Below the pieces are notes generated by a model. That model was given only the letters and a program-made list of their open reading frames with translations. It did not search any database and was not told the origin of the DNA. Positions 8,785-51,584 of a stretch of 64,000 nucleotides of DNA are shown piece after piece. The position numbers and the translations under genes were made by a program. The stretch is from Escherichia phage Ecwhy_1: sequence record MH791411.1. One strand, given 5' to 3'. The stretch's first letter is position 1. The number at the start of each line of letters is the position of its first letter.

Positions 8785-8905
8785 TTCAGTACTCAATACT
8801 CATATAATAGATACACTTATGCACCCTGTGGGCTAGTGAGCTATCTCTCAATGAATATATAATAGCAAAATGGCTGACCGGAGTCAACCACTTTTTTCAT
8901 TTATT
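8785..8905. repeat. conserved ~120-bp intergenic element, copy 3
   Basis: GCACCCTGTGGGC box + TGGCTGACCGGAGTCAACCA hairpin + T6. Confidence 0.6.
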
Positions 8906-49087: not shown

Positions 49088-49456
49088 CTATCGATTTGGC
49101 ATTTTATCTCGTAATTTCACAAGATAATCAATCACGGTACATCCTGAAATAAAGGTAATATAAGTACTGAAAAATCCTACCAGAATAAAGGCAACAAGCG
49201 TACTCCCATTTGGTTCTTCAGCTTTAATACCAATGATACCATCAGATGCAGTGAAAAATGTAGACATAAACGTTAGACAGATGTACATCACTAATAAGAA
49301 TTCATGTTCTAATGACGGATAAAAACGGTCAAAGAGTTTATAAAATTTAAAGTACAGTAGGAGTATACCAACAAAGGCATAGAAAGTAAACAGTGTTGTT
49401 ATGATATATGATATTAAATTTAAATTATACATCTCAACGCTCCGGTAGATTATCAC
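49088..49456 (-). CDS. small membrane protein family member (122 aa)
   Basis: same family as 39636-42075; C-term LRDKMPNR. Confidence 0.65.
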   Translation of the reverse strand: MIIYRSVEMYNLNLISYIITTLFTFYAFVGILLLYFKFYKLFDRFYPSLEHEFLLVMYICLTFMSTFFTASDGIIGIKAEEPNGSTLVAFILVGFFSTYITFISGCTVIDYLVKLRDKMPNR

Positions 49457-49781
49457 GTAATGTTTTGATTCGATTATACAATTTCATTGCTACATTTCCA
49501 AATAAACCAAAACCCATTACTAAAATGTATGCGATGAACATAGTAATAATCACAATAGTACCTAGACTGTAATGTACTGCACTAATACCCATTATTGTTT
49601 CTACAATGATGTGAGCAACAGAAATAATCAAAAGTACTACTACAATTGGATGATTTGGATACATTCGGTTAAACAATGTTTTGTACTTAAAGAAGTACAG
49701 TACTCCACCAAATAAGAAGTACACAATGTAGATTGATGCAATAGCATAAGCAAAAGCATTAGTGTAGAAAATCATTATCAA
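49434..49781 (-). CDS. small membrane protein family member (115 aa)
   Basis: C-term LRDNLPER. Confidence 0.65.
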   Translation of the reverse strand: MIMIFYTNAFAYAIASIYIVYFLFGGVLYFFKYKTLFNRMYPNHPIVVVLLIISVAHIIVETIMGISAVHYSLGTIVIITMFIAYILVMGFGLFGNVAMKLYNRIKTLRDNLPER

Positions 49782-49784
49782 TCC

Positions 49785-50123
49785 TTACTTTTCAGGGATT
49801 TTATCACGCCACTCATCAATACGATGAAGCAGTTTAAAGAGCAAAAATATCGGAACAGTAGCTATCATAATGGCAATTGTTAGTAATGTCAACCCCGATA
49901 CGAGATTTAATTCGTCAGTACTATATCCACATACCAGTGCTTCAATTATCCCCCACGTACATGCACAGAACATCATAAATGAAATGGGTGCATCGTAGTA
50001 TATGCGTTGATACAAGGTTGTGTATCGGAAGAATGCAATAATGTAACAAAACATGTAATACACCCAAATTAACGATACTACATAAAATGATACCTTATTA
50101 ATTAATTCAAAATGTTGTTCCAT
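49785..50123 (-). CDS. small membrane protein family member (112 aa)
   Basis: C-term WRDKIPEK. Confidence 0.65.
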   Translation of the reverse strand: MEQHFELINKVSFYVVSLIWVYYMFCYIIAFFRYTTLYQRIYYDAPISFMMFCACTWGIIEALVCGYSTDELNLVSGLTLLTIAIMIATVPIFLLFKLLHRIDEWRDKIPEK

Positions 50124-50133
50124 TTTTTTACCC

Positions 50134-50436
50134 CTACATATATTCTAAGAATAATGTATTAGCTTCGTCTATGTTCTTAAGATAATACATGTAATACAGA
50201 TTTGGTTGTCCGTCTTTTGAACTCAAATCAAAGTACTTTAAACTATGCACCTTCATGACAAAAACAAATAATGACTTAAAACCAATCTCACCGTACTTAA
50301 TAAACAGTTCATCTAAATGAATGTAACTCTTAGTTTCAGATAATTCCTTCACATCAGCTTCAATTTCTTGTAAGCGAAGTTTACCGATTAAGTTTTCAAA
50401 TGAACGCATGATGTTGTTCCTTATGCTGGTACACAA
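50134..50436 (-). CDS. hypothetical protein (100 aa)
   Basis: ORF track. Confidence 0.55.
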   Translation of the reverse strand: MCTSIRNNIMRSFENLIGKLRLQEIEADVKELSETKSYIHLDELFIKYGEIGFKSLFVFVMKVHSLKYFDLSSKDGQPNLYYMYYLKNIDEANTLFLEYM

Positions 50437-50834
50437 TTTTTTATAATGAATACACGTTTCATGAATGAACTTTCATATACGTACTTCAGTTTACCATTTT
50501 CACGCATACGATGAAACACATCTTTACCACTAGTACTCCATGTTGAACCAGTCTCTGCATCAACATTGTTCATTACACCAGATGTTACGTTCACCCCGTA
50601 CTTGAAGCTAAAGGTACTGCCTTCTTCTACTAGAGGGATTGGTGTACTACGTTCATGTTCCAGTACAAGTTTACTGCCGATGATGTTGTACGAAGTTAGC
50701 TTGCATTTTAAAACACCCATCTCTTGTGCAGTTGGGTAATTCTTCTCAAATAAATCAGATACTTCATTTGCATAACAAACTGAACTAATCATAAGAAGTA
50801 ATGAACTGATAGAACGGAAAATAACTTTTAACAT
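50421..50834 (-). CDS. secreted hypothetical protein (137 aa)
   Basis: signal-peptide-like N-terminus. Confidence 0.6.
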   Translation of the reverse strand: MLKVIFRSISSLLLMISSVCYANEVSDLFEKNYPTAQEMGVLKCKLTSYNIIGSKLVLEHERSTPIPLVEEGSTFSFKYGVNVTSGVMNNVDAETGSTWSTSGKDVFHRMRENGKLKYVYESSFMKRVFIIKNCVPA

Positions 50835-50900
50835 GTTTGCCTCCAGTAGTTGATGAAATGATTATAGCAAAAAGGGCCGACCGAAGTCAACCCTTTTCTT
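50835..50900 (-). promoter_or_regulatory. class-B cassette
   Basis: GGGTTGACTTCGGTCGGCCC hairpin + T-run + TATAAT. Confidence 0.6.
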
Positions 50901-51251
50901 TTATATTTTACATGTCATGTCTGGTTTTGGCTTTTCATTCTTTGGCTTTTCAAATGGATTTGGCTTAGGGGACTTTTTATCTTTGTCATCTTTAGCTTTC
51001 TTTTTGTTTTCTTTTTTATCCGATTTGTCAGCTTTGTCTTTCTTATCTTTTGAATCTTTGTCAGCTTTAGATTGTGGTTCCTCACATACAGCAGTTTTTG
51101 GCTCCGGCATATCACATGAGTTATCCACAGGTTTAATGAACTCTTTACAGTTGTAGAAGTATAAACTTTCATTGGTAGTAAGATTGTGGAATCTAAAAGT
51201 ATTTTCACCATTAGTATATACTTTCTTAGTACTCTCAATATCATTACACAT
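50901..51251 (-). CDS. Lys/Asp-rich Cys-containing protein; possibly C-terminal part of a frameshifted secreted protein
   Basis: track ORF starts at GTG; first ATG at 51251; no own signal peptide; upstream ORF with signal peptide ends 13 nt away in another frame. Confidence 0.4.
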   Translation of the reverse strand: MCNDIESTKKVYTNGENTFRFHNLTTNESLYFYNCKEFIKPVDNSCDMPEPKTAVCEEPQSKADKDSKDKKDKADKSDKKENKKKAKDDKDKKSPKPNPFEKPKNEKPKPDMTCKI

Positions 51252-51261
51252 TGCAACCGTG

Positions 51262-51513
51262 TCACCGGAATTCACGCTCGATACCTAGTATATCCGACTT
51301 ACGTTCAGATAGTATTCCAGACGTATATCGATCTTTGTTATCAAATGCATTGAACCCTATAGTTTTATAATTGTCATGTACCAATCCTCTAGTGTAAGAC
51401 TTGGTATAGAACTCACCGTTTCTAAACTCCTGTCTAGCAATGGAGCACTGGTATTCAGTACTATAAACTATATCAGTAAACAATACAAGTGAAAATAAAA
51501 CATATTTAAACAT
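51262..51513 (-). CDS. secreted hypothetical protein (83 aa)
   Basis: signal peptide MFKYVLFSLVLFTDIVYS. Confidence 0.55.
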   Translation of the reverse strand: MFKYVLFSLVLFTDIVYSTEYQCSIARQEFRNGEFYTKSYTRGLVHDNYKTIGFNAFDNKDRYTSGILSERKSDILGIEREFR

Positions 51514-51584
51514 TGCATTACCTCTTATAAAACCCTCTACAATATTTACAAAAAAAGGTTGACCGAAGTCAACCTTTTAAATGT
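51514..51584 (-). promoter_or_regulatory. class-B cassette
   Basis: perfect GGTTGAC-TTCG-GTCAACC hairpin + T7. Confidence 0.6.

Follow-up and report, generated by a model that had tools for sequence, protein, structure and literature searches.

To our knowledge, few programmed +1 frameshifts have been described in bacteria and phages, and most of them were found by chance. Programmed shifts of phages include -1 shifts in tail assembly chaperones, and +1 shifts at CCC_UGA in structural genes of Listeria phage PSA. In E. coli, few features predict +1 shifting as strongly as a CGG codon in the A site, since the tRNA for CGG is scarce and GGY, the +1 codon, is read by an abundant tRNA-Gly; a +1 shift at GGU_CGG_C in yehP was confirmed by mass spectrometry, and UUU_CGG_C in ygcH figures among the top-ranked candidates (PMC2790909). 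A related +1 shift, at UCC_UUU_CGU, produces PA-X in influenza A virus (PMC3498833). Finally, indels accompanied by low-level compensatory frameshifting form a recognised class (review by Atkins et al., PMC5009743).

The locus compared here with these systems lies on the minus strand of a 64,000-nt stretch of Escherichia phage Ecwhy_1 (MH791411.1), which we call the window. ORF A (51262..51513) starts with an ATG, encodes 83 aa ending in ...GIEREFR, and stops at a TGA (51264-51262); its Shine-Dalgarno (SD) sequence AAGAGG (51521..51526) is located 7 nt 5' of the ATG and pairs at -7.2 kcal/mol. ORF B (50901..51251) follows in the +1 frame relative to ORF A, and encodes 116 aa from its ATG to a TAA (MCNDIES...FYNCKEF...NSCD...AVCEE); an alternative GTG start for this frame, at 51275, is found in the ORF listing. 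A preliminary description had placed ORF B 13 nt downstream of ORF A in another frame: the change of frame is real, but the spacer between TGA and ATG (51252..51261) measures 10 nt, and 13 is obtained only by counting the stop.

The window belongs to an Asteriusvirus-like jumbo coliphage. In this region, identity reaches 99% with Escherichia phages Turkey3, EC.P1 and BF17, and 77 to 87% with the Asteriusvirus jumbo phages 121Q, PBECO4 and slurp01, whose genomes have about 350 kb. With tblastn, ORF A and ORF B each match the same 35 phage records. In the 30 records of Asteriusvirus type, without exception, the coordinates place the first codon of ORF B 14 nt past the last sense codon of ORF A, a common geometry of identical stop, 10-nt spacer and +1 offset, and two genes are annotated in all split records. 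The break is older than the separation of two clades, that of the window and that of 121Q, whose synonymous sites are saturated.

A single-ORF form exists in Salmonella phages Munch, 7t3, SE_PL and PHA46 and in Klebsiella phage fENko-Kae01, where the A-like and B-like matches are in the same frame, 240 nt apart, within one CDS. These homologs are 192 to 202 aa long (the annotated CDSs have 202 to 204 aa, or 192 to 194 aa if counted from the likely start MRK). An IMG/VR contig of about 360 kb (L011) also carries one ORF, the contig being found again in a JGI metagenome as AGFT01054919.1 (L018, protein cluster P0003), and clusters P0002 and P0003 are both single ORFs. Scans of IMG/VR, metagenomes and GTDB genomes gave one further fused locus and no intermediates. 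When ORF A and ORF B are read as a conceptual +1 fusion, in which the T of the TGA is skipped, the product aligns with the single-ORF homologs without a gap at the junction (IEREFR-DTVAMC versus LKHKAK-DNVAFC); D84, V86, A87, C89 and six cysteines, one in the A half and five in the B half, are invariant in this alignment. At the DNA level, AAG GAT AAC GTA GCT TTC TGT in the fused form corresponds to CGG-T-GAC ACG GTT GCA ATG TGT in the split form, a difference of one inserted base. The start codon of ORF B is Met in every split phage, and Phe or Tyr (TTC or TAC) in every fused one, a replacement of two base changes. The existence of the single-ORF homologs, together with the one-base insertion, indicates that the fused state is ancestral and that the split one was derived in the Asteriusvirus lineage. 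We regard it as near certain that ORF A and ORF B represent the two halves of what was ancestrally a single gene for a secreted barrel protein. The proposal that the two ORFs together form one secreted protein is partly supported: they correspond to a single protein, as judged from single-ORF homologs of 192 to 202 aa, from the gap-free +1 fusion and from a single predicted barrel. The preliminary description had set against such a protein the case of homologs in two separate genes with their own start signals; this is half the case, since the close relatives all have two ORFs, with the ATG of ORF B at the stop-to-start distance usual in this phage.

The signal peptide of ORF A, read from the sequence, covers codons 1 to 18 (MFKYVLFSLVLFTDIVYS, 51460..51513). 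Its n, h and c regions (MFK / YVLFSLVLF / TDIVYS|TE), with small residues at -3 and -1, are those of a Sec signal for SPase I, which would likely cleave after VYS. Equivalent regions are found in 121Q (...SYG|AD) and in the fused homologs (...AFS|TQ in the Munch type). The earlier account of ORF A, a clear signal peptide on a product that ends after 83 aa, is confirmed in its coordinates and in its Sec-type organisation. The mature form has 65 residues and a single conserved cysteine, C23. A lipoprotein of the T5 Llp type was considered and rejected, as the lipobox L-x-x-C is absent and no cysteine is present at the cleavage site, the first one of the mature protein being 5 residues in (TEYQC). 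The ORF A ortholog of phage fEgEco12 (g556, L003 1988-2239) is annotated as 'lytic conversion lipoprotein', an assignment to which the sequence gives no support and of which the fEgEco12 paper makes no mention. In the PHROGs database, the sole match is phrog_28901, a family without functional annotation that spans the A half only.

ORF B has five cysteines and a K/D/P-rich tail, and lacks a hydrophobic N-terminus or signal peptide, in agreement with the first description of a Cys-containing, K/D-rich product without export signal. The last three predicted strands of the barrel described below fall within 51263-51129 in an AlphaFold2 model, followed by a Cys-rich linker (51128-51072) and by the tail (51071-50904), which terminates in PDMTCKI. 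The length of the tail differs among isolates, those of P0005 and E9.1 being shorter by 11 and 8 aa, respectively, and the loci with variation in the segment corresponding to 50904-51071 are L005, L012, L013, L015 and P0005. In PBECO4, SD-1_S14 and SD-2_S15 the tail is truncated by frame breaks in an A-rich tract, which may reflect true slippage or else errors of sequencing in assemblies that are older or in draft state.

For the conceptual fusion, AlphaFold2 with an eight-row alignment predicts eight beta-strands between residues 18 and 125. The mean pLDDT is 57, with values of 70 to 87 in the better blocks and low values at residues 72-90, around the junction, and in the tail. ORF A holds predicted strands 1 to 4 (residues 18-69) and a low-confidence fifth (79-82) at the junction; the natural single-ORF protein P0003 has the same predicted strand pattern. 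Foldseek matches in the PDB are NHBA-C, TbpB, LolA and lipocalin barrels, and BFVD yields, over 113 to 134 aligned columns, the homolog of 7t3 together with several barrel proteins or lipoproteins of phages, 110 to 130 aa in length. Sequence searches of Pfam, NCBIfam and the PDB gave no match. Given that mature ORF A has only 65 residues, a barrel needs strands from both ORFs, and this moderate-confidence model suggests one eight-stranded beta-barrel built from the two halves. The resemblance to small periplasmic eight-stranded barrels, such as the PliC/MliC lysozyme inhibitors, Brucella PhiA, Neisseria ACP and the NHBA C-domain, is one of fold class. From these features we infer that the A+B protein would be periplasmic and disulfide-bonded; a role there, for example in lysozyme inhibition or superinfection exclusion, is speculation on the basis of the model. 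We also considered whether the protein could be a spanin and rejected this, since the spanins of 121Q are encoded at another place in its genome, by genes 511 and 512 (PMC6139136 supplement), and ORF B has no lipobox.

Both halves evolve under constraint. Between the clade of the window and that of 121Q, pS reaches 0.62 to 0.84 (saturated), for a non-synonymous divergence of 0.13 to 0.20. The resulting pN/pS is 0.18 to 0.23 in mature ORF A and 0.22 to 0.24 in the barrel half of ORF B, as compared with 0.24 and 0.37 to 0.42 in single-ORF lineages. The linker alone (residues 129-147) is relaxed, with pN/pS of 0.7 to 0.8, and its cysteines are kept. As judged from these substitution ratios, neither half is relaxed since the split.

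ORF A and ORF B appear bounded as one unit. Upstream, a terminator hairpin with a UUCG loop (51553..51578; -15.6 kcal/mol, z -4.6), which contains a TTGACT -35-like box in its stem, lies 3' of the gene of a 503-aa virion structural protein and marks the start of the A-B unit; downstream, a second UUCG hairpin (50869..50898; -19.1 kcal/mol, z -5.2) marks its end. The element GTTGACTTCGGTC is present in ten copies on the minus strand of the window, with at most one mismatch, for 0.05 expected by chance, the 13-nt cores being at 8876, 42960, 44598, 45822, 46405, 50879, 51561, 53142, 53922 and 57516. When folded, each of the two copies that flank A-B supplies the UUCG loop of a strong terminator hairpin, together with its 5' arm. 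These elements look like combined terminator/promoter cassettes that bound small transcription units, and the presence of GTTGACTTCGGTC hairpins on both flanks, with none between ORF A and ORF B, indicates that the two ORFs belong to one transcription unit. The next gene downstream, ORF C (50421-50834), has a near-consensus promoter (50890-50861; TTGACT, 18 nt, TATAAT) that overlaps the second hairpin, whose stem holds the TTGACT box, and matches at 11 of 12 positions. ORF C also encodes a signal peptide, and the possibility that it is a paralog of the A+B protein was discarded (hhalign probability of 0.2%). In the 121Q clade, ORF C begins 9 nt after ORF B (L002 3073-3083), whereas in the window clade a 66-nt cassette (50835-50900) separates them, which suggests gain or loss of this terminator/promoter cassette between clades. 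In 121Q, a protein kinase gene follows ORF C; none was seen immediately after ORF C in the window. Further on, two adjacent minus-strand ORFs of about 112 to 115 aa (49434-49781 and 49785-50123), with alike hydrophobic profiles and C-termini (...RDNLPER and ...WRDKIPEK), look like tandem paralogs encoding small membrane proteins, as far as their sequences tell; the annotation of Turkey3 has a run of similarly sized genes in the 49434-50123 region.

The stretch that is open in both frames, 51262..51284, runs from an upstream TAG (51287-51285) to the TGA of ORF A. As frame B is open only from 51284, any change of frame falls in the last 7 codons of ORF A; in the 121Q clade, the both-frame window is just 5 codons. 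The proposed recoding site, TTC CGG TGA (Phe, rare Arg, stop; 51262..51270), is not a homopolymer, and reads GGT GAC in the +1 frame, or GAC after CGG. Inspection of every base of the junction in 13 loci gave GAR TTY CGG TGA N10 ATG TGY, and TTY CGG TGA is invariant in all of them. CGG is the rarest Arg codon of 27 long ORFs of the window, where it accounts for 4 of 248 Arg codons (1.6%), or 0.5 per 1000 codons. The variation 5' of CGG is synonymous in frame A (GAA/GAG, TTC/TTT), the change from TTC to TTT giving Ser to Phe in frame B. On the 3' side of the T, most changes are silent in frame B (GAC/GAT, ACG/ACA, TCA/TCC, GTT/GTA/GTG), with two conservative changes, Thr/Ser and Ala/Val. The 10-nt spacer reads (D)-T-V-A in frame B, where the fused homologs have D-N-V-A. 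Five of at least seven events fall on third positions of frame B, to which 4 of the 10 sites belong; with a binomial p of about 0.1, this codon-position pattern is just suggestive. Comparing the window with 121Q, indels are found in 7 of 12 genuine intergenic spacers of 8 to 14 nt, and never in the A-B spacer. Substitutions in spacers do not discriminate, with 8 of 48 sites overall, and 5 of 9 sites in a similarly diverged region versus 4 of 10 in the A-B spacer.

The explanation that we favour, with a probability of about 0.5, is that ribosomes cross the one-base break by a +1 frameshift at UUY_CGG_UGA, giving a full-length periplasmic protein. One base would have been inserted (CGG-T-GAC) in the common ancestor of the Asteriusvirus-type phages, creating an in-frame TGA and moving the rest of the gene to the +1 frame. 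A fraction of the ribosomes would then shift by +1 within UUY_CGG_UGA and make the full-length protein, and those that do not shift would terminate and release the 83-aa product. Two routes can be imagined. The shift may occur while the rare CGG is waiting in the A site, leading to ...EF-G-DTVAMC... (peptide EFGDTVAMCNDIESTK), or while UGA is waiting with tRNA-Arg in the P site, leading to ...EFR-DTVAMC... (peptide DTVAMCNDIESTK). CGG followed by UGA would impose two consecutive pauses, and a +1 move at either would yield a product of the same length. This product would be Sec-exported, and would consist of a disulfide-bonded small barrel, a Cys-rich linker and a Lys/Asp/Pro-rich tail with a terminal cysteine. 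The frameshift, like its exact site and its efficiency, is something we infer. We give it the highest weight because a half-barrel devoid of signal, which keeps its cysteines and is under undiminished selection, would make little sense in the cytoplasm, because the codons 5' of the AUG still look translated, and because the site is built of the two slowest decoding events available.

Several properties of the locus are those expected of recoding: the ORFs in the 0 and +1 frames overlap, and the trans-frame product is colinear with the single-ORF homologs; a slow codon, the rare CGG directly followed by UGA, occupies the A site; and the shift site is conserved while both ORFs are under purifying selection. 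Re-pairing in the +1 frame of the P site is incomplete, with one of three pairs for CGG to GGU and two of three for UUC to UCC, and would be perfect (UUU to UUC) only in slurp01 and SP27; in shifts of the Ty3 type, re-pairing is not strictly required. An SD stimulator with the prfB spacing (at least 4 nt, about 3 nt upstream) is absent from the loci inspected. No conserved RNA structure was found at the junction, where the fold has a z of +0.33, and the alignment fold, at -5.45 kcal/mol, contains one covarying pair. Virion mass spectrometry of phAPEC6 lists the upstream neighbour gp035c but neither gp033c nor gp034c, an absence to be expected of a non-virion protein.

Alternatively, the insertion may have split the gene into two independently translated ones, an outcome that we hold to be possible, if short of probable. 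ORF A would then be exported as a 65-aa peptide, and ORF B would be translated from its own AUG, by coupling or re-initiation 10 nt past the stop, to give a product that stays in the cytoplasm or acts in a manner independent of the intact barrel. The ATG is found exactly 10 nt after the TGA in 30 of 30 Asteriusvirus-type records, and looks like an acquired start codon, since TTC or TAC stands in its place in the fused homologs. Moreover, a stop, 9 to 11 nt and an ATG constitute the standard junction of this phage, so that the ATG of ORF B stands at the customary stop-to-start distance; the gene junctions of 19800-63800 are very regular, the stop overlapping the next SD (TAAGG or TAGGGG) and the ATG coming 9 to 11 nt on. 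Translational coupling is possible without a good SD. In addition, the statement that ORF B has no convincing SD needs correction: the anti-SD pairing of CCGGUGA, 5' of ORF B, has a strength of -7.4 kcal/mol, and among 130 crude gene calls of the window 82% have a weaker best pairing upstream, which places GGUGA in the top 18% of window genes, and just 6% of all ATG triplets match this strength. If GGUGA serves as an SD, it would also account for the conservation of CGG and TGA. Annotators call two genes in all split records, and the classical +1 stimulators are all missing. Against a true fission, both halves make up one predicted eight-stranded barrel, and ORF B has no export signal, yet its five cysteines are aligned with those of fused secreted proteins. 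Its barrel half is as constrained as ORF A (pN/pS of about 0.2 to 0.24), and is not relaxed with respect to the fused lineages. The D-x-V-A codons 5' of the ATG are kept, and vary mainly at third positions of frame B, and GGUGA, as judged from aligned spacings, is probably some 6 nt farther from the ATG of ORF B than the SDs of neighbouring genes are from theirs. The two processes may also coexist, most ribosomes terminating at UGA, some re-initiating to give free ORF B product, and a few shifting by +1 to make the functional protein; a 'compensatory' low-level shift of this kind would keep a dose-sensitive periplasmic protein scarce. The evidence for shifting and that for fission are mutually compatible, but we judge this combination distinctly unlikely, as it is the least parsimonious and nothing specific speaks for it.

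The view implied by the preliminary description, which advised inspecting the reads, is that of a sequencing or assembly error; an error, or else a recently inactivated pseudogene, now seems very improbable. It is true that a lone one-base break resembles a homopolymer error or a fresh mutation, and that PBECO4, SD-1_S14 and SD-2_S15 have extra frame breaks in the A-rich tail of ORF B. But one and the same junction recurs in 30 records, which many laboratories sequenced independently on various platforms, and it does not lie in a homopolymer, which rules out an assembly error; furthermore, the break predates clades that are now saturated at synonymous sites, and purifying selection on two intact ORFs excludes a decaying pseudogene. 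Other ways of joining the frames were rejected. A -1 frameshift or transcriptional slippage does not fit, as ORF B is in the +1 frame and there is neither an in-frame X_XXY_YYZ nor a homopolymer (the GAAAAAG of the 121Q clade is missing from the window clade). A hop from CGG to a second CGG (CA-CGG-TT) would end in the third frame, and the 121Q clade has no second CGG. Readthrough of the UGA would be of no avail, since frame A meets a TAA five codons later. No tRNA gene that could supply a phage tRNA of unusual anticodon is present within the 64-kb window.

With the frameshift as preferred reading, A-B is a clean and testable candidate, as the unbroken ancestral gene survives in sister phages. 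The break passes through a single folded, exported domain, is kept genus-wide in jumbo phages of E. coli and Salmonella, and joins the rarest Arg codon of host and phage to a stop codon. If the frameshift is real, it represents a new type of shift site working in E. coli, and the annotation of some 30 genomes, which now list two 'hypothetical proteins', one of them mislabelled as a lipoprotein, would have to be corrected. If it is not, a beta-barrel gene has been split with both halves under selection, which itself needs an explanation. A bolder version of the frameshift, which we consider unlikely, is that of a genus-wide regulated +1 signal, in which CGG backed by UGA, without slippery P-site codon and without SD or structural stimulator, would set the ratio of the 65-aa half-barrel to the full-length protein, possibly in relation to how much host tRNA-Arg(CCG) or RF2 is available while a jumbo phage infects the cell, and with a possible periplasmic role of the full-length protein, such as superinfection exclusion or lysozyme inhibition.

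How does this candidate compare with known systems? Like the programmed shifts of phages, it is phage-encoded, conserved in relatives, and would yield a shorter and a longer protein from a single start. However, those shifts extend complete proteins at the C-terminus, whereas the A-B break cuts the single domain of a secreted non-virion protein, and the short A product looks incomplete. In the case of prfB (RF2; CUU_UGA_C), the likeness resides in an in-frame UGA that follows a sense codon, in a +1 frame that opens with GAC or GAY (Asp), and in the skipping of the U of UGA for the full-length product; the window clade also shares the weak UGA-C context, while the 121Q clade has UGA-U. In contrast to prfB, CGG cannot re-pair here as CUU does on UUU, the AGGGGG SD stimulator is missing, and the A-B site has no evident autoregulatory logic. 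The resemblance to yehP and PA-X lies in the decoding step itself, with a Phe or Gly codon followed by a rare and slow CGN Arg codon in the A site, and a +1 A-site codon, GGU in the present case, that is decoded by an abundant tRNA. Most A-B members differ from these two in having UUC_CGG, for which two of three pairs re-form, and in having the rare codon backed by a stop; slurp01 and SP27, with UUU_CGG, are directly analogous to PA-X.
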